Assembly: GCA_964354865.1 (NCBI GenBank)
Contig: CAYHBN010000001.1
Coordinates: 488 to 64,487, forward strand
DNA: 64,000 nt
Origin: an uncultured Candidatus Peribacteria bacterium
Lineage (GTDB): Bacteria > Patescibacteriota > Gracilibacteria > UBA1369 > UM-FILTER-53-11
Direction: 5' to 3'
The position numbers were made by a program, and so were the translations under genes. Numbering within the stretch: position 1 is the first letter of the stretch; each line of letters opens with the position of its first letter. Positions 3,332-59,941 of this stretch are shown piece by piece. The notes under the pieces were generated by a model that did no database searches, was not told where the DNA came from, and saw only the letters and a program-made list of their open reading frames with translations.

Positions 3332-3406
3332 TGGTGCACCCGAGAGGAATCGAACCTCTATCCACGGTTCCGAAGACCGTCGTTCTATCCGTTGAACTAC
3401 GGGTGC
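3332..3406 (-). tRNA. tRNA-Arg (anticodon UCG), CCA encoded
   Basis: The reverse complement folds as a cloverleaf. Acceptor: GCACCCG/CGGGTGC. D arm: GTTC-AACGGATA-GAAC. Anticodon arm: ACGGT-CTTCGGA-ACCGT (anticodon TCG). 4-nt variable loop. T arm: AGAGG-TTCGATT-CCTCT. Discriminator A, then CCA. Confidence 0.9.
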
Positions 3407-6551: not shown

Positions 6552-8218
6552 ATGACACCACTACCAAGGAACAGCTGAGCTACGCGTCGGTTATTCCGCT
6601 GCGGCGGGTACCTGAGCGTTTTGCCGTACTTTCATATTCATATGAAAAGTCGCTCAATCTTTCTCGTGGCGATGTGGTAAAAATGCCCTTTGGAAAAAGC
6701 GAAATTTTTGGTGTGGTGATTTCGACTCAACAGTTCAAACCAAGTTTTTCGGTAAAACAAATATCAACAATACTCCCCTACCAATTAGGCGAAAAAACGC
6801 TTTCGGCAATAGATCAAATTCATGCGCACTACCATGTTTCGTACGCTCAAATTGTGCAGCTATTTATATCGTCTACGACGCTTGAGGCATTGAACAAAAA
6901 AAGTATACAAGATGATTTATTAGGGATTTTTGAAGAAACAAAAAACTATATAGAAGCTGCGCCATCACAAGAAGTGCAGTTCCCCTACCGGCTTTATATT
7001 GAAAAATCAGCGAATGACCGAAGTGAGCTTTTAACAAAATTATTATCACGTGCAACAGGCACGACACTCATTGTACTACCCGAGCAGTACGCACTCTCAC
7101 ACATAGAAAAACGGCTTACCGATGCTAATATAAACTTCGTCTCCTATCATGGAGAAATCAACGCACGAAAACGAGCGACCATTTGGCTCAAGGCTCTCAA
7201 TGGTATTCCACAGACCATAGTCACCACTCGCATTGGGCTGTTTCTGCCATTCAGGGAGTTATCGAATATTATTTTATTTGACGAAGACAACGAGTCTTAT
7301 GAAGAGATTCGCAGCCCGCACTATCACGCCGTTGATATCGCTCGCTTGCTTACCGAGACCTATGGTGCGGCCATGAGTACCGTGGTTCCTGCTCCGCTGT
7401 TTGAAACATGGCATGCCTGTGAATCGAATCCTAAAACGCATACCGTTTTTCAACTTACCCAAACAAACGATACTCCTACACAGGTTACTATCGTACCGAT
7501 GACCGAAGAAAGAATGTCGGGGAATCACAGTGCGCTCTCTGAAATCGCACTTCAAAAAATTGCCGCAACACTCGCACAGCATAAACAGGTTTTGCTTTTT
7601 ATTAACCGTCGAGGTGTCGTCAGTATGACTGTCTGCAAAGAGTGTGATGCCATTGCCTCGTGCCCACGCTGCCAGACCGCACTCACCACCCACCGCAATG
7701 GCGAGTTCAAGTGTCATCGCTGCAACTTCAACTCTGAGATTCTTTCTGCATGTAAAAATTGCGGCAGCCTTCGTCAAAAATCGATTGGGCTTGGTACCCA
7801 GGGTATAGAGGATCTATTGAACAAAATATTTGCTCAAGCGAAGATAATTCGCCTCGACTCAGACTCGGTAAAAGGCTCAAAAGAGCGAAAATTCGCCCTG
7901 AGCTTCGATGAGCTCGACAGCGCCGACATTATCGTAGCAACAAAAATTATCGATAAACCGCTCGATCTACCACGGCTCGCCACCTCAATTGCGGTGGTGC
8001 CCGACTCGCTGCTTCATATTCCTCATTTTCGCGCCGAAGAGAAGGCATTACAAACTCTCGCGCGGCTCAAAGTGAACACAAAAGAAAACCTTATTTTGCA
8101 AACATACCTGCCCGACTCTGCGGTATATCAAGCGCTCGAAACAGGGAACCTCATGCCGTTTTATACGCAAGAACGAGACACTCGAAAACTGCTTAAACTG
8201 GCTCCATTCAACGAATAG
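6548..8218 (+). CDS. priA: primosomal protein N' (PriA)-like, helicase motifs degenerate
   Basis: PriA-type Cys-rich region CKECDAIASCPRCQTALTTHRNGEFKCHRCNF...CKNCGS (7634-7768). Colinear with E. coli PriA (LFINRRG, GLGTQ). The Walker A position reads IEKSANDRSELL and DEEH reads DEDN. Confidence 0.7.
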   Translation: MNDTTTKEQLSYASVIPLRRVPERFAVLSYSYEKSLNLSRGDVVKMPFGKSEIFGVVISTQQFKPSFSVKQISTILPYQLGEKTLSAIDQIHAHYHVSYAQIVQLFISSTTLEALNKKSIQDDLLGIFEETKNYIEAAPSQEVQFPYRLYIEKSANDRSELLTKLLSRATGTTLIVLPEQYALSHIEKRLTDANINFVSYHGEINARKRATIWLKALNGIPQTIVTTRIGLFLPFRELSNIILFDEDNESYEEIRSPHYHAVDIARLLTETYGAAMSTVVPAPLFETWHACESNPKTHTVFQLTQTNDTPTQVTIVPMTEERMSGNHSALSEIALQKIAATLAQHKQVLLFINRRGVVSMTVCKECDAIASCPRCQTALTTHRNGEFKCHRCNFNSEILSACKNCGSLRQKSIGLGTQGIEDLLNKIFAQAKIIRLDSDSVKGSKERKFALSFDELDSADIIVATKIIDKPLDLPRLATSIAVVPDSLLHIPHFRAEEKALQTLARLKVNTKENLILQTYLPDSAVYQALETGNLMPFYTQERDTRKLLKLAPFNE

Positions 8219-8740: not shown

Positions 8741-9712
8741 ATGAGAATTTTATCTGGCATGCAGCCATCGGGCAAAGCCCACATTGGCAACTATTTAGGA
8801 GCAATGCGACAGCACGTTGCAATGCAAAACGAGGGCGATTGTTTTTACTTTTTGGCTAATTATCATGCACTTACTACCATTCGCGATAGTGCTCGATTGA
8901 AAGAATTAACCTTTGATCTTGCGGTCGATTATTTGGCGCTCGGCATCGATCCTACAAAAACGACGTTTTTTATGCAGAGCGATGTTCCCGAACTTACCGA
9001 ACTTACATGGATATTCGATACCATTAGTCCCGTAGGTCTTCTCGAACGAGCACACGCCTGGAAAGACGCAAAACAGAAAGGGAAAAAAGATATGACCGTG
9101 GGACTCTTCAATTATCCTGTATTAATGGCATGCGATATTTTAATATATAGCCCGGACAAAGTTCCCGTTGGCCAAGACCAAAAACAACACGTCGAAATTA
9201 CCAACGATATCGCCGGCTACTTTAACAACACGTTCGGCGAAACATTTAAACAAGTTGAAGTCGTCATAAAAGAAGATGTCGCCGTGGTACCTGGTACCGA
9301 CGGACAAAAAATGAGCAAGAGCTATGGCAATACCATCGACATATTTACCGACGAAGCGACACTTAAAAAACAGGTGATGGGTATTAAGACCGATTCACTT
9401 GGCGTTGCCGATCCAAAAAATCCAAATGAGTGTATTCCGTTTCAACTCCTCTCTCATTTTGCCTCGCCAGAAATCGTTAAAAGTGTTGAAGAAAAATTAC
9501 GAAATGGAGGCTTCGGATACGGTGATTTAAAAAAACAACTTCTCGAGACACTTCTTGCCTACTTTGCCGATGCACGTGCGCGTAGAGCTGAACTATTAAA
9601 AAATCCAAGCTACGTTCATGACGTACTCGCGCAGGGGGGTAAAAAAGCTCGCGCAGTCGCACAAACAAAAATGGCAGAGGTAAGAAAAAAAGTTGGCCTT
9701 GACCTGTTATAA
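8741..9712 (+). CDS. trpS: tryptophan--tRNA ligase
   Basis: Class I aaRS motifs: GKAHIGNYLG (HIGH-type) and KMSKS. 323 aa is a typical TrpRS length. Confidence 0.95.
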   Translation: MRILSGMQPSGKAHIGNYLGAMRQHVAMQNEGDCFYFLANYHALTTIRDSARLKELTFDLAVDYLALGIDPTKTTFFMQSDVPELTELTWIFDTISPVGLLERAHAWKDAKQKGKKDMTVGLFNYPVLMACDILIYSPDKVPVGQDQKQHVEITNDIAGYFNNTFGETFKQVEVVIKEDVAVVPGTDGQKMSKSYGNTIDIFTDEATLKKQVMGIKTDSLGVADPKNPNECIPFQLLSHFASPEIVKSVEEKLRNGGFGYGDLKKQLLETLLAYFADARARRAELLKNPSYVHDVLAQGGKKARAVAQTKMAEVRKKVGLDLL

Positions 9713-11353
<1,641 letters not shown>

Positions 11354-19784: not shown

Positions 19785-20954
19785 TTTTACTTTTTTATTT
19801 ATTATTGTATTTAACTCTTTTTATGAGTATGCACTTCTTGAAATATTCGGCGCAAATTTGCAAGTCATAAAGCTTGATATTATGGCCTTGGCTAGCCATA
19901 ATTAGCGCGTCGATAGATTGTATTATTTTATAAATATTCTGCTATGAATATCGAAACAATTTCAGACGGACAATTATACAAAATGTGCAGGAATTTTGGC
20001 TCACAGGCACTCGAAGCTCGTCGTAAATTTATCGGACTATTGCCAGAGGTAAATCGTCGCAGATTGTATGAGAAAAAAGGATTTTCTTCGATCTTTCATG
20101 TCGCGGCGGTGCTCGCAGGTGTGAGCAAAGAACAAGTGAGATTAGCTATAAACCTTGGTACGCGTTTTGAAAATATGCCTCAATTGAGAGAAATTCTCGT
20201 TGAAGGGCGCACGAGTATTAATAAATTGTCTCGAGTCGTCTCGATTGCAACGATCGAAAATCAAGCTGAACTTGCCGAAAAAGTACTGATTTTATCGAAA
20301 GTCGCGCTCGAAGTTTTTGTGCGAGATTATTTGATTGAAAAAAATCGTGAGGCGCAAAGTGCGTATGTGAATAACGAAATCGAAGAAGGACTTTTTACAA
20401 ACCAAAACGCCGACGTAGCAAGCGTTCAAAATCAAGATGGCTTGTATAAACCAGAAACCGAGGCAAAATGTCTGCCCGGGCAGACCAGTAATCCTATAAA
20501 TTCTGCAAAACCTGCCCAACTCATCAGCTACATTGAAACCCCTATGTTAAGCGATACCGTGAAACAGGCTCTCAACGAGCTGCAAGAAAAAGGAATTAAT
20601 ATTGATCAAATCATTTTAGAGGCGCTCGAAAAACGAAAAGCTGATTTAGCGCAGAGAACGGCGGTACAAATAGAAAAAGCAGAAGCAAAATTAATCGAGC
20701 AAATTGTCGAGGGGAAAACGATCTCACCTCACGTTCCTGTTGCTTCAAAACGGCTTTTAAAAGAGGAACACGGCGATCGTTGTTCTGTCCCATTCTGCAA
20801 AAACAAAGCAAAAGTTATTCATCACACTAACCGTTTTTCAATAAGTAAGTCTCATGATCCGCGTTATCTGGCTCCATTATGCGACCCGCATCATCAAATC
20901 GCACATGCGGTAGATGTGAAGGCGACGGAGATGCGAAAAAATAATGGCATTTAA
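19785..20954. repeat. copy A of a diverged ~1.2-kb inverted repeat (HNH-type gene plus ~160 bp upstream)
   Basis: Aligns by eye with the reverse complement of 35857-37030. The shared upstream blocks TTTTACTTTTTT and GAGTATGCACTT sit at matching distances from the ATG. Confidence 0.7.
19944..20954 (+). CDS. HNH-type nuclease domain protein (paralogue A)
   Basis: C-terminal CSVPFCKNKAKVIHHTNRFSISKSHDPRYLAPLCDPHHQIAHA fits an HNH/His-Me finger. The N-terminal helical region is shared with 35857..36870. Confidence 0.75.
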   Translation: MNIETISDGQLYKMCRNFGSQALEARRKFIGLLPEVNRRRLYEKKGFSSIFHVAAVLAGVSKEQVRLAINLGTRFENMPQLREILVEGRTSINKLSRVVSIATIENQAELAEKVLILSKVALEVFVRDYLIEKNREAQSAYVNNEIEEGLFTNQNADVASVQNQDGLYKPETEAKCLPGQTSNPINSAKPAQLISYIETPMLSDTVKQALNELQEKGINIDQIILEALEKRKADLAQRTAVQIEKAEAKLIEQIVEGKTISPHVPVASKRLLKEEHGDRCSVPFCKNKAKVIHHTNRFSISKSHDPRYLAPLCDPHHQIAHAVDVKATEMRKNNGI

Positions 20955-35856: not shown

Positions 35857-36870
35857 TCACTCGCGCATTTTATTTCGCCGCATCTCCGATGCTTTAACAT
35901 CGACCGCATGTGCAATTTGGTGATGAGGGTCGCACAGTGGGGCTAGGTAACGAGGATCGTGTGAATGGCTAATTGAAAATCGATTTGTATGGTGAATAAC
36001 TTTCGCTATATTTTTGCAAAATGGAATTGAGCACATTTCCCCGTGTTCATCTTTCAATAGGCGTTCAGTTGCGACGGGAATATAATGAGAAATTGGTTTT
36101 CCTTCGACAATTTGCTCGATTAATTTCTGCTCAGCTTTCTCTACTTGCACCGCTGTTCTCTGCTCTAAATCCTTTTTTCGTTTTTCAAGCGCCTCTAAAA
36201 TGATTTGATCAATGTTAATTCCTTTTTCTTGCAGTTCGTTGAGTTGTTTCTTCACTTCGTCGCCCAAAATTGGGGTTTTAATGTATGTGATGAGTTGTGC
36301 GGGTTTTGTAGAATTTATGGAGTCATCGATCTGCCCGGGCAGACATTTTGCCTCGGTTTCTGGCTTAGGAAAACCATCTTGATTTTGACCGCTTGCCGCA
36401 TCGGTGTTTTGGTTTGTAAAAAGTCCTTCTTCTATTTCGTTATTCAACTGCGCACTTTGTGCAATGCGATTTTTTTTAATCAAATAATCTCTGACAAAAA
36501 CATCGAGCGCGGCTTTCGATAAAATAAGTACTTTTTCGGCAAGTTCAACCTGATTTTCGACCGTTGCGATCGAGACGACTCGTGACAATTTATTAACACT
36601 CGCGAGCCCTTCAACTAAAATTCCTCTCAATTGTGGCATATTCTCGAATCGATTATCGAGGTTTATCACTAATCTCACTTGTTCTTTGCTCACTCCCGCA
36701 ATCACCGCTGCAAAGTGAAAAAGTGATACAAACTTTTTTGTTTCGTACAGGCGACGCGCGTTTACTTCTGGCAAAAGACCGATGAATTTGTTTCGCGCCA
36801 AAAGTGCCTCACGTCCAAATTTCCGGCACATTTCGTACAACTGACCGTCTGAAATTGTTTGAATATTCAT
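35857..36870 (-). CDS. HNH-type nuclease domain protein (paralogue B)
   Basis: Start at ATG 36870 (MNIQTISDGQLYEMCRKFG), aligned with paralogue A. C-terminal CSIPFCKNIAKVIHHTNRFSISHSHDPRYLAPLCDPHHQIAHA. Confidence 0.75.
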   Translation of the reverse strand: MNIQTISDGQLYEMCRKFGREALLARNKFIGLLPEVNARRLYETKKFVSLFHFAAVIAGVSKEQVRLVINLDNRFENMPQLRGILVEGLASVNKLSRVVSIATVENQVELAEKVLILSKAALDVFVRDYLIKKNRIAQSAQLNNEIEEGLFTNQNTDAASGQNQDGFPKPETEAKCLPGQIDDSINSTKPAQLITYIKTPILGDEVKKQLNELQEKGINIDQIILEALEKRKKDLEQRTAVQVEKAEQKLIEQIVEGKPISHYIPVATERLLKDEHGEMCSIPFCKNIAKVIHHTNRFSISHSHDPRYLAPLCDPHHQIAHAVDVKASEMRRNKMRE

Positions 36871-37030
36871 AACACAATATTTGTTAAAAAAATACAACCT
36901 ACCGACGAACCAATTATGGCCACTACAAGCCAAAATGTCACGCTTTCCGACTTGCAAATCAGAGCGGAATATTTCAAAAAGTGCATACTCACAAACCATG
37001 CACTCTGCAATATATTTCAAAAAAGTAAAA
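35857..37030. repeat. copy B of the diverged ~1.2-kb inverted repeat
   Basis: The reverse complement aligns with 19785-20954, including the upstream non-coding blocks. Confidence 0.7.
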
Positions 37031-37187
37031 CACCAACGCTGCATAACATTATCGCTCAATATTTCTCAATAAAACGCAAACGCCATAGCAAAACGTTCCC
37101 GGGAACAACAGACCTCGAAAATTTCGAGTTAAAATCCCAAAATCCACTCACCTCCCACCCCTCCCCTTTTTCTGCTAAACTCGCTGC

Positions 37188-52777: not shown

Positions 52778-53134
52778 ATGAAAAATTTAGCACCAAATAT
52801 CACACGTGAACGTCTTGTTATAGAGGGTTTCTTTTCTATTAAGGTAGATGAAGAAGTTATTAAAGACTATTTCAATAAAATAACCTCCGAGCTCAGTTTA
52901 AGAATGTACGGAGAGCCAATCATCTTTTCACCAGGTGGAATGGGCAAAGAAGAAAATCAAGGCTATGACGCTTTTGTTCCGCTCATTGATTCAGGCATTT
53001 CACTGTATGTTTGGGGGAATCAGAAGTTTATGTCTGCCATTATTTATACGTGTAAGACTTTTGACCAAAAAAAAGCCATTCAAGTGACTAAGGATTTTTT
53101 TAATGTCGCAGAGATTGAATCAATGTTCTTTTAG
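52778..53134 (+). CDS. S-adenosylmethionine decarboxylase (SpeH)-like small protein
   Basis: 118 aa. GYDAFVPLIDSGISLYVWGNQKFMSAIIYTCK aligns with [32 protein letters not shown] of small AdoMetDC proenzymes, but the ES cleavage site reads DS and other residues differ. Confidence 0.35.
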   Translation: MKNLAPNITRERLVIEGFFSIKVDEEVIKDYFNKITSELSLRMYGEPIIFSPGGMGKEENQGYDAFVPLIDSGISLYVWGNQKFMSAIIYTCKTFDQKKAIQVTKDFFNVAEIESMFF

Positions 53135-53362
53135 CTGAGTGTCACCGGGGACAGTTTTCGGTAGGACAATATTTGATAAAATATTTTTTCAGTGTTTAGT
53201 TTAGATTCCGTACCGGTACGGTGAAAGTGTGCACGTGCACACTAATCTCCCATGAAAAAGACAATTTGTAAAATTTGTTATATTAACTTGTTCCCGGGAA
53301 GACTTTTTTTATTTAAAGGTTTTTGAGAGAAATGAACGCGGGGCTTTGTGACATGGGAGATA

Positions 53363-53523
53363 TTTAGGAAAGTTTTTGGGGAAGGGGCGGGTGAGGGAAA
53401 TAGTATAGCCACCATTTTTTGGGATCACGTATCCCAAAAAATAGCGAAGCCCGTACATGTTAGGGCGAGCGACCTTGTGGCTATATTTCCCTCACCCGTC
53501 CCGAACCTAAAGACTTTCCTAAA
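53363..53523 (+). other. ~160-nt long-stem hairpin: candidate structured RNA or MITE-like palindromic element
   Basis: The arms 53363-53410 and 53477-53523 pair over about 45 bp, with one 3-nt bulge, one 3x3 internal loop, and three G-T pairs that are compatible only on the plus strand. An inner perfect hairpin TTTTTTGGGAT-cacgt-ATCCCAAAAAA lies at 53415-53441. Confidence 0.4.
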
Positions 53524-53578
53524 AACCTCGAACAAGGAACCGCGGCCATTCACTCTCAAATCCCCCGTTTAAATATAG

Positions 53579-53615
53579 AAAAAAAATCCCCCGCACTCTT
53601 TTGAGATACGAGGGA
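53579..53615 (-). terminator. rho-independent terminator of rplY/ctc
   Basis: The minus strand reads TCCCTCG-loop-CGGGGGA followed by T8. The U-G pair works only on the minus-strand RNA. Confidence 0.6.
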
Positions 53616-53638
53616 CTTTAAGTTTATAACGAGGTCTA

Positions 53639-54295
53639 CTATTTCTTATCAGCGCCCTTCTCAGCAGCGGGAGCACCAGCAGCTGGAGCAGCAGCGGCAC
53701 CTTCGGCAGGAGTAGCGGCAGCAGCTTTTGAAGCTTCAGCCTCAACCTTGATGTGGCTTGCGGTAACAACCGTGTCTTCCATCGCATCGAGAACAGTAAT
53801 ACCTGCAGGGAATTTAATATCTTTAACGTGAACCGCAGTATGAAAGTCAACGATAAGTGAAATATCAACCTGAATTGAATGAACCAAATCTTTAGGCAAA
53901 CACTTAATTTTAAGTTCATGTTTATGAACATCGAGAATACCACCAAGAGTTTTAATCGCAGGTGAAACACCGATGAACTCAACTTTAACTGAAGCGGTAA
54001 CCATCTTATTCATATCGATTACTAAAAAATCAATATGTTGGTAAAAATCGCTTACCGGATCGTACGTTACCTCTTTAACAAGAACAGGATGCTCCTTGCC
54101 ATTTACCTTGAGCTGCACAATCGTATTAGTACCGGCCTTAATATAGACCTTCCTAAATGACTGATAATCAACATCAAGCATTTCAGGCTTTGACCCAGCT
54201 CCATATACAACAGCAGGAACTCTGCCAGTTGCGCGGATAGCCTTTGCCTTAATTGTAGCACTGCGAACCGATGCGTCTAAAAGTAGATTTTCCAT
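53639..54295 (-). CDS. rplY: 50S ribosomal protein L25/general stress protein Ctc
   Basis: N-terminal RATGRVPAVVYG. Two-domain Ctc form with an Ala-rich C-terminal tail. 218 aa. Confidence 0.9.
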   Translation of the reverse strand: MENLLLDASVRSATIKAKAIRATGRVPAVVYGAGSKPEMLDVDYQSFRKVYIKAGTNTIVQLKVNGKEHPVLVKEVTYDPVSDFYQHIDFLVIDMNKMVTASVKVEFIGVSPAIKTLGGILDVHKHELKIKCLPKDLVHSIQVDISLIVDFHTAVHVKDIKFPAGITVLDAMEDTVVTASHIKVEAEASKAAAATPAEGAAAAPAAGAPAAEKGADKK

Positions 54296-58519: not shown

Positions 58520-59941
58520 CTAAAGTCCTATTTCTCGCTTCAATGCATGAATATCTTGCAAAAGCTTTGAGTCTTTATTTAATTGGTTTTTAACTTTATT
58601 ACACGAGTGCAAAACGGTCGTGTGATTTCGACCCGAGAAATATTCACCAATCGTATCGTATGAACAGCCCAAAATTTCGTAAATGAGGTACATACAGATC
58701 TGTCGAGGCAACATAACCTCGCGACGACGAATCGAGCCCTTCATCTGCTCAGAAGGCATTCTATAGTAGTCCGAGACCAATTGAATAATATCGTCAGCGT
58801 TACGTACACTTTGCTTTGACTCTGCCTGTAATTTCGTCACACCCGTGAGCTCGGGAATGCCGGGTGCCTGCCGATAAATCATTGCCGCGATAGACTTAAC
58901 AGTCGGTGTAGAATTCGCCAATCTCATTTCGGCAATTGCCTGTTTTAAAACTCCTTCAAGTTCACGAATTGAGTTATGTACATTCTGGGCAATAAAATCC
59001 AAAACATCAGGAGCGACAATCACGCCTTCTTGGCTACACTTGTTTTGCAAAATAGCGAGACGAGTCTCGTAGTCCGGAAAATGCGCCTCGGCCACCATAC
59101 CCATCTCGAAGCGACTCTGTAATCGAGCCTCAATGCCATGAAGCTCTTTAGGAGGGCGATCAGAGCTTATAATAATCTGCTTATTTGCGTTATAGAGCTC
59201 GTTAAACAAATGAAAAAACTCTTCTTGAGTACGATCTTTTTCAGCGAGGAGTTGAATATCGTCAACGATCAAACAATCAACTGAACGGTAGCGGGCCTTA
59301 AAATCATGCGCATTATATTTTTTAATTGCATCAACAACCTCATTCAAAAATCGCTCAGCGGTAAAATAAACCAAGGTTTTATTCGGAAAGTTTTTGAGCA
59401 TCTCACGGCCAGTCCCCTGCAATAAATGTGTTTTACCAAGTCCTACTCCACCATAAATAAAAAGCGGATTCCACTGACTACCAGGATTTGTCGCCACTGC
59501 ACTACAAGCCGCATGAACCAATCGATTATGTTTGCCGACGATAAAGCTGTGCAACGAGTACTTATTATTGAGCATGATGCTCGTATTTTCTTCATTCACC
59601 TTCACCTCTTGTTTATTCGGCAACTTTCGAGCTTTCTTTGATTGCGGTACGACTGACCCAACCGTAACTTTTCGGTTATCATCAATGTCAGTTAGCGTGC
59701 TCTCTACTTGTATACGAAGTGCGATAACTTCTGGATCTTCTTTTTTCAAAAGTTCGAGCAAATTTTCTTTTTGGTGCTTTTCAATCCAACTCAATGCGTA
59801 CGAATTTGGTACACCAACAACAACGAGCCCATTCGAATAGGTCAAGATTGCAGTGTCTGCAAACCATGTAATGAACTGATCGTGCCGAATATCGGGATAT
59901 AAAGCGGTCAAAACTGAACGCCAGAGTTCCTTGGGTTCCAT
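58520..59941 (-). CDS. dnaA: chromosomal replication initiator DnaA
   Basis: Walker A GGVGLGKTHLLQ, Walker B LIVDDIQ, sensor motifs, and a C-terminal DNA-binding domain (NHTTVLHSCNKV). Confidence 0.95.
   Translation of the reverse strand: MEPKELWRSVLTALYPDIRHDQFITWFADTAILTYSNGLVVVGVPNSYALSWIEKHQKENLLELLKKEDPEVIALRIQVESTLTDIDDNRKVTVGSVVPQSKKARKLPNKQEVKVNEENTSIMLNNKYSLHSFIVGKHNRLVHAACSAVATNPGSQWNPLFIYGGVGLGKTHLLQGTGREMLKNFPNKTLVYFTAERFLNEVVDAIKKYNAHDFKARYRSVDCLIVDDIQLLAEKDRTQEEFFHLFNELYNANKQIIISSDRPPKELHGIEARLQSRFEMGMVAEAHFPDYETRLAILQNKCSQEGVIVAPDVLDFIAQNVHNSIRELEGVLKQAIAEMRLANSTPTVKSIAAMIYRQAPGIPELTGVTKLQAESKQSVRNADDIIQLVSDYYRMPSEQMKGSIRRREVMLPRQICMYLIYEILGCSYDTIGEYFSGRNHTTVLHSCNKVKNQLNKDSKLLQDIHALKREIGL

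Follow-up and report, generated by a model that had tools for sequence, protein, structure and literature searches.

What kind of element fills the palindrome-rich gap at 53135–53638 of the 64-kb window (the whole stretch of DNA analysed here)? The gap separates an AdoMet_dc-family gene (52778–53134, plus strand; Pfam PF02675, 30.3 bits), which an earlier note on this DNA called SpeH-like and which we treat as context outside the element, from rplY (L25; 53639–54295, minus strand), and the convergent arrangement of the two genes given in that note was confirmed. The note left the choice between a structured RNA and a MITE; our tests lean towards the RNA, with no Rfam family recognised, one syntenic locus, base pairs kept between genomes and a plus-strand bias in two of three genomes. 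The reading that we prefer, to which we assign a probability of roughly 0.45, is that the element is a plus-strand structured RNA, either a 3′-UTR element or a 3′-UTR-derived small RNA. It is a lineage-specific long-hairpin intergenic element of a familiar kind and not a new kind of system. What the sequences show is the fold, its stability beyond chance, its conservation and its insertion history at one locus; that the element is transcribed, from which strand and between which ends, and what it may do, we infer.

All of the features listed in the earlier note are present, at or within 1–2 nt of where it had placed them. For the long hairpin at 53363–53523 (plus strand) it had proposed arms of about 45 bp, and the stem is indeed ∼45 bp long: the inverted-repeat arms (53357–53402 and 53484–53529, 46 nt) are 83% complementary by Watson-Crick pairing and ∼95% when G·U pairs are counted, and no other inverted repeat of this size occurs within the 64-kb window. 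The 3-nt bulge and 3×3 internal loop that had been described for the stem are seen in the minimum-energy fold as AUA and GAA/GAA. Folded as RNA, the plus strand of 53355–53530 (176 nt) reaches −99.6 kcal/mol against −47.4 ± 4.3 kcal/mol for shuffled sequences (z −12.1; 0/200), and the minus strand −87.3 kcal/mol. Pairing continues outward, between 53322–53334 and 53547–53560, so that the whole element is a ∼248-nt rod (53318–53565, plus strand) composed of a closing helix, interrupted lower helices, the long stem and an apical three-way junction; as RNA, this rod has a minimum free energy of −133.3 kcal/mol when the plus strand is folded and −114.4 kcal/mol for the minus strand, and the z-score of 53285–53580 is −11.7. 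At its base, the 5′ base block, B5 (TTTTGAGAGAAATGAACGCGG, 53321–53341, plus strand), forms the closing helix with CATTCACTCTCAAA (53547–53560), which is included in the 3′ base block, B3 (53524–53565, plus strand), and the two ends of the rod are 14-bp inverted repeats, TTTTGAGAGAAATG at 53321–53334 and CATTCACTCTCAAA. At its tip, the three-way junction joins a closing helix, GCCAC/GUGGC, to the hairpins P2 and P3. P2 (53414–53442, plus strand; 5-nt loop) is the inner hairpin that the earlier note gave as 11 bp at 53415–53441: it is perfect, as claimed, but has 12 bp (53414–53425 / 53431–53442). P3 (53444–53470, plus strand) is a short hairpin with a G/A internal loop and a 10-nt loop, GUACAUGUUA.

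By its L25 homologues the organism, an uncultured groundwater bacterium, belongs to Candidatus Peregrinibacteria (CPR). The gap is identical in three assemblies of the window strain, and a homologous element occupies the same locus in two related genomes, L004 (a Logan contig) and L019 (an NCBI contig; L020 is identical in the region). The H+-PPase relationships of these genomes are (window, (L019, L004)), then L007. The last of these, at 83% L25 identity, has no element but an 84-bp gap with one bidirectional terminator common to rplY and the DUF3006 gene, and the element is likewise absent at the locus in L006, L010, L013, L014 and L015, which have 16–130-bp gaps or another inserted gene. 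Its presence in the window, L004 and L019 and its absence from L007 and five more distant relatives mark it as a lineage-specific insertion. The rplY / DUF3006 gap seems to tolerate insertions in general; in L015 a TauE-family gene (9363–10124) has been inserted between the same convergent genes. The SpeH-like gene and ∼90 bp after it (52778–53225) are found in the window genome only, where the gene ends the plus-strand H+-PPase / DUF3006 operon, and in L004, L019 and L007 the DUF3006 gene is followed directly by the intergenic region. The gene together with 53135–53225 is a further, window-specific insertion.

Since its arrival the element has changed differently in the two relatives. In L019 the whole three-way junction and the inner arms are gone (P2 and P3 are deleted), as a single central deletion would explain. 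In L004 the lower helices are missing from both sides, with B3 reduced to a degenerate remnant, and its outer arms have diverged from those of L019 at about the neutral rate. The 14–21-nt B5 block is the only part common to all three genomes. The 5′ arm of the hairpin contains, at 53378–53397, a canonical G-quadruplex motif, GGGGAAGGGGCGGGTGAGGG, that the relatives have not kept, L019 having 3/4 G-tracts and L004 a looser version. Loop–loop kissing between P2 and P3, perfect in L004 and with one mismatch in the window, was discarded because it shows no covariation.

Next to the rod stands the intrinsic terminator of rplY (53579–53615, minus strand), a G+C-rich stem with a U8 run that is strong on the minus strand only (−21.2 kcal/mol, against −11.3 kcal/mol on the plus strand) and that precedes the element in that direction. 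In the relatives without the element this terminator also serves the plus-strand operon. Its sequence is near-invariant between the window (53579–53615), L004 (6690–6733) and L019 (3494–3530), and it is still recognisable in L006 (∼6684–6718; 65% L25 identity), a conservation that is unusually high for a terminator. Three Logan contigs (L005, L011 and L012) stop 29–31 nt past the rplY stop codon, at the terminator hairpin, and a fourth (L003) stops 139 nt past it, within the 3′ arm of the long hairpin; these contig ends probably reflect an artefact of assembly at inverted repeats and not a biological feature.

The earlier note could not match the hairpin to a known RNA family, and this held when Rfam was searched. 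At gathering thresholds Rfam 15 gave a sole match in the whole window, a tRNA at 3335–3406, and when the window gap, L004 and L019 were scanned permissively, only sub-threshold plant and animal miRNA precursors and other chance matches appeared, the best of which was MIR8643 with 37 bits against a gathering score of 135. Matches to miRNA precursors are to be expected for any long hairpin. ARAGORN found neither a tRNA nor a tmRNA in 53000–53800. The earlier note had also set aside a retron ncRNA for want of a nearby RT gene, and there is none among the genes around the gap, which encode H+-PPase, DUF3006, AdoMet_dc, L25, YbaB, FecR-domain, HI0933-like and DnaA proteins. A small protein gene was rejected as well: the long ORFs over the rod do not share a frame between the window and L019, the ATG in B5 opens ORFs of 11, 19 and 54 codons that are mutually dissimilar, and a spurious 74-aa ORF, which some gene callers predict over the hairpin, found only itself among 5.8 billion proteins.

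A known RNA with which the element invites comparison in outline is 6S RNA (RF00013 and related families), which is likewise rod-shaped and of 160–250 nt. The shortest version, that of L019 (161 nt), has a closing stem separated by an 11/8-nt internal loop from a ∼22-bp terminal stem, recalling 6S in both outline and size, and a divergent 6S-like RNA would be a rod whose internal bubble sequesters RNA polymerase. We consider this identity very improbable, since the Rfam 6S models gave no match up to an E-value of 10 in the window, L004 or L019, and since the internal loop found in that one orthologue varies in size and sequence, being mostly closed by pairing in the window and missing from L004, so that there is no conserved central bubble. 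The element also lacks the conservation of 6S RNA across relatives, and a housekeeping 6S would not be expected to be missing at the locus from L007 and all more distant relatives. A search of the literature on non-coding or 6S RNAs in Peregrinibacteria or CPR bacteria found nothing relevant.

Comparison of the three orthologues indicates that the rod has not simply drifted. The dS between the window and L004 is ∼0.97, and at four-fold sites the window has an identity of 0.50–0.52 with either relative, and L019 and L004 one of 0.61 with each other; neutral sites are therefore near saturation, and an unconstrained ancestral hairpin should have decayed. All three orthologues nevertheless fold as rods, with z-scores of −5.8 in L004 and −4.8 in L019. 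When the window fold was projected on a sequence-only alignment with L004, 84% of cells were paired, against 38–53% in controls in which the 3′ partners had been slid by 1–3 columns; with only three sequences known, 12 base pairs had changed on both sides between the window and L004 and were still paired, and the slid controls gave 2–6 two-sided changes. The P2 stem has a wholly different sequence in L004 and still pairs perfectly (GTTTTGGTCAT / ATGACCAAAAC), and the P3 stem shows compensatory changes between the window and L004, with the P3 sequence CCGTACATG(Y)TAGG identical in both. Primary sequence has been retained elsewhere in the rod. The window and L019 agree at 25/28 positions of the outer 5′ arm (p ∼1e-4) and at 35/42 of B3, with 34/35 in its core (p ∼2e-8 against a neutral value of 0.55), and the most conserved piece, B5, has 20–21/24 identical positions in each pairwise comparison of the three genomes. 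The element is thus under selection or concerted maintenance, and hairpin-templated repair of a DNA palindrome could be an alternative source of the two-sided pair changes.

The main rival account of the locus makes the element a MITE-like non-autonomous mobile palindrome, or the relic of one, that was inserted beside the rplY terminator and has been eroding differently in each lineage, with the RNA fold as a by-product. We regard this as unlikely, and the evidence pulls in both directions. A lineage-specific insertion of 160–250 bp into a convergent gap that has accepted others (the SpeH-like gene in the window, the TauE gene in L015) would suit a mobile element, as would the central deletion in L019 and the symmetric shortening in L004. 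The inverted-repeat ends, TTTTGAGAGAAATG and CATTCACTCTCAAA, are the same in L019 and degenerate in L004 and would also suit it, but they do not discriminate, because inverted repetition runs through the entire element. In each of the three genomes the rod is bordered by short direct repeats rich in A+T (TTTAAA for the window, TTAAGA for L019, AATAAAAAT for L004); these are not convincing target-site duplications, however, because they differ between the orthologues and are of low complexity. The history of the rod would suit mobility too: identity in the flanks follows the species tree (77% between L019 and L004, 67–68% between the window and either), whereas identity in the rod conflicts with it (83–89% between the window and L019, 38–61% between L019 and L004), so that the rod of the window is nearest to that of L019 while the flanks and the PPase tree place L019 nearest to L004. 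That a promoter and a terminator for the element are not established speaks for a mobile palindrome too. On the other side of the balance, the inserted DNA, when compared with relatives that have short gaps, also takes in ∼95 bp that lie left of the inverted repeats, and a dead insertion would not be expected to keep arm and base blocks 89–97% identical where neutral sites are at 50%.

The number of copies bears on the same choice. The earlier note had raised BLASTN as a means of finding further copies, and within the 215 kb searched there is a single syntenic locus in three genomes: BLAST with each of the three rods recovered the orthologous locus only, and neither BLAST nor a covariance model found a second copy in the 64-kb window or in the 215 kb formed by the window and related genomes. 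An exact scan of JGI metagenomes for the core motif found nothing, and exact-motif scans of IMG/VR and BLAST against plasmid and phage collections were equally empty. Exact matches to the B5 motif in JGI metagenomes were three chance occurrences on unrelated high-G+C contigs, and the covariance model rejects them. None of the neighbouring ORFs checked in the window was found to encode a transposase. These results, which leave the element with one known locus and no partner transposase among those ORFs, count against a mobile palindrome. Elsewhere in the window there is a 1,022-bp inverted duplication (19923–20944 and 35870–36891, 80% identity, 15 kb apart) that spans a pair of paralogous genes (336 and 400 aa), neither of which matches Pfam, and that carries the palindrome TCTGCCCGGGCAGA in each copy.

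If the element is an RNA, the sequence favours the plus strand. The earlier note had counted three G-T pairs in the long stem as an argument for a plus-strand RNA; the excess on that strand stands, with G·U pairs in the minimum-energy fold numbering four for the plus strand against one for the minus, and with L004 added to the window the counts are 4+3 against 1+0. The plus strand also folds better, by 12–19 kcal/mol in the window and by ∼14 kcal/mol in L004; L019 has no strand preference (−58.3 kcal/mol plus, −60.8 kcal/mol minus). Neither a consensus scan nor hairpin folding found an intrinsic terminator on the plus strand of the gap, and the long hairpin is not itself one, as there is no U-run after it on either strand and the terminator scan was empty. 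Upstream of the rod, a candidate promoter on the plus strand may be read at 53258–53284, consisting of AAGACA, 15 nt and TGTTATATT (53276–53284, of the extended −10 type). The same layout, AGAC-N15-T(A/T)T(A/T)YT, is present in L004 and L019, and the stretch resembles the −10 boxes that stand directly upstream of many start codons in the window genome. A consensus promoter scan did not call it and passed no promoter in the gap, and the minus strand of the gap offers −10-like boxes as well. The genes of the window have no Shine-Dalgarno sequences, and a TATAAT-like box, often TGnTATAAT, ends 5–12 nt before many of their starts (for example 39878, 63344, 39839, 58503, 50225, 19675 and 43419), a pattern in the sequence that suggests that leaderless mRNAs may be widespread in this genome.

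Between the SpeH-like gene and the rod the gap holds several smaller palindromes. The two short ones nearest the gene do not belong to the conserved hairpin: one is specific to the window and the other is swapped for a different palindrome in the relatives. The first, the perfect 14-bp palindrome CCGTACCGGTACGG (53208–53221), was correctly described in the earlier note; it lies within the window-specific spacer (53135–53225) that arrived with the SpeH-like gene and has no counterpart in the L004 or L019 alignments, and as RNA it is a weak hairpin (−4.4 kcal/mol, z ∼0). The second had been given as 16 bp at 53227–53242; a perfect palindrome is present there, but its true length is 18 bp (AGTGTGCACGTGCACACT, 53226–53243). 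L004 and L019 have a different palindrome, GTTCGCGCGAAC, at the homologous position, right behind the last gene of the operon. As RNA, AGTGTGCACGTGCACACT forms a hairpin of −10.5 kcal/mol with no U-run, and it may serve as a 3′-end hairpin or as a protein-binding site. Neither palindrome is remarkable singly, the window having 11 perfect palindromes of at least 14 bp against ∼4 expected from shuffles, several of them centred on CCCGGG; the pair, 5 bp apart within one gap, is unusual. The long-range pairing proposed between 53245–53254 and 53352–53361 was recovered as ATCTCCCATG with CATGGGAGAT. Further along, the palindrome TTCCCGGGAA is followed by a run of seven T (53291–53310), an arrangement kept in L004 and split by a 23-nt insertion in L019. 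We rejected this CCCGGG palindrome and T-run as a terminator, as it forms no stable RNA hairpin (−0.5 kcal/mol).

Such a density of perfect palindromes, built of 4–6-bp self-complementary units (GTGCAC twice, GTAC, CCCGGG, ACATGT and CCGCGG), raises the question of whether the element works as DNA, either as a group of palindromic sites for protein binding or as a cruciform, with a part in chromosome biology near the origin or in regulation of the neighbouring operons. The gene dnaA (58520–59941) is only 5 kb from the gap, and the hairpin region is also very stable when folded as single-stranded DNA (−69.4 kcal/mol, z −10.4). The palindrome GTTCCCGGGAAC moreover occurs in two intergenic regions, at 37093–37104 and, as GTTCCCGGGAA, at 53290–53300 in the gap; the copy at 37.1 kb lies between divergent genes, one of which encodes DNA polymerase III delta, and GTTCCCGGGAAC may be an operator for an unknown regulator. 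We nonetheless hold a DNA-level role for the element to be decidedly unlikely. An origin or partition site, which the proximity of dnaA had prompted us to consider, was rejected: the gap contains no DnaA-box cluster (boxes with ≤1 mismatch) and no parS-like site (≤3 mismatches), and there is no GC-skew switch in the window. The small palindromes vary in sequence between orthologues, close relatives that lack the element must still replicate and segregate their chromosomes, and the plus-strand asymmetry in G·U pairs would be meaningless for duplex DNA.

For the plus-strand RNA that we prefer, the following course of events can be proposed. In an ancestor common to the three sampled Peregrinibacteria, a ∼250-bp element entered the interval that separates the H+-PPase / DUF3006 operon from a terminator formerly common to the operon and rplY, and it would now be expressed as a plus-strand RNA. 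Because the element lies upstream of the old terminator for transcripts of the operon and beyond it for those of rplY, read-through from the operon would give the plus strand by default, and the extended −10-like box at 53276–53284 could add a separate start. The RNA would fold as a long rod, with the closing helix (53322–53334 / 53547–53560), the ∼45-bp stem and the three-way junction at its tip, and would act most plausibly as a protein-binding or transcript-stabilising module. This reading is not secure, since the insertion is recent and absent from the closest outgroup, the tip, which looks the most conserved, has been lost in L019 and the lower helices in L004, the history of the rod is discordant with that of its flanks, the element ends in 14-bp inverted repeats, and neither a promoter nor a plus-strand terminator is established. 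Its absence from L007 and all more distant relatives indicates that it is dispensable on a short timescale, which counts against this reading. A bolder version, which we think quite unlikely, would make the rod, produced from the 3′ end of the H+-PPase operon, the founding example of an undescribed, modular class of rod-shaped regulatory RNAs in CPR bacteria, in which the conserved G-rich 5′ arm, the base helix and the apical junction would be separate protein- or RNA-binding modules that lineages lose independently.

Two groups of known systems resemble the element most closely. Bacterial small RNAs that are derived from or embedded in 3′ UTRs are alike in their position, between the last gene of an operon and the ancestral terminator, and in their stable structure with conserved single-stranded loops and stems that change with pairs kept; in contrast, the element, with its ∼250 nt and 45-bp near-perfect stem, is far longer and more duplex-like than typical members. 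The ERIC elements of enterobacteria and the Correia elements of Neisseria are intergenic palindromic repeats that are transcribed as long hairpins. With these and with MITE-like elements it has in common a size of 100–250 bp, inverted-repeat termini, a lack of coding capacity, a place beside terminators, a rod-shaped fold and a patchy occurrence among close relatives. Those families are defined by many dispersed copies, however, whereas the element has one locus and no other in 215 kb or in the scanned collections; it also differs from MITEs in having no convincing target-site duplication and no partner transposase among the ORFs checked.

CPR bacteria cannot be cultured alone, and to our knowledge almost nothing is known of non-coding RNAs or small mobile elements in them. 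The reach of the present finding is limited to one locus in three genomes; within that reach, a constrained structured element confined to a few close genomes would offer a manageable system in which to follow the origin and decay of such elements in very small genomes.
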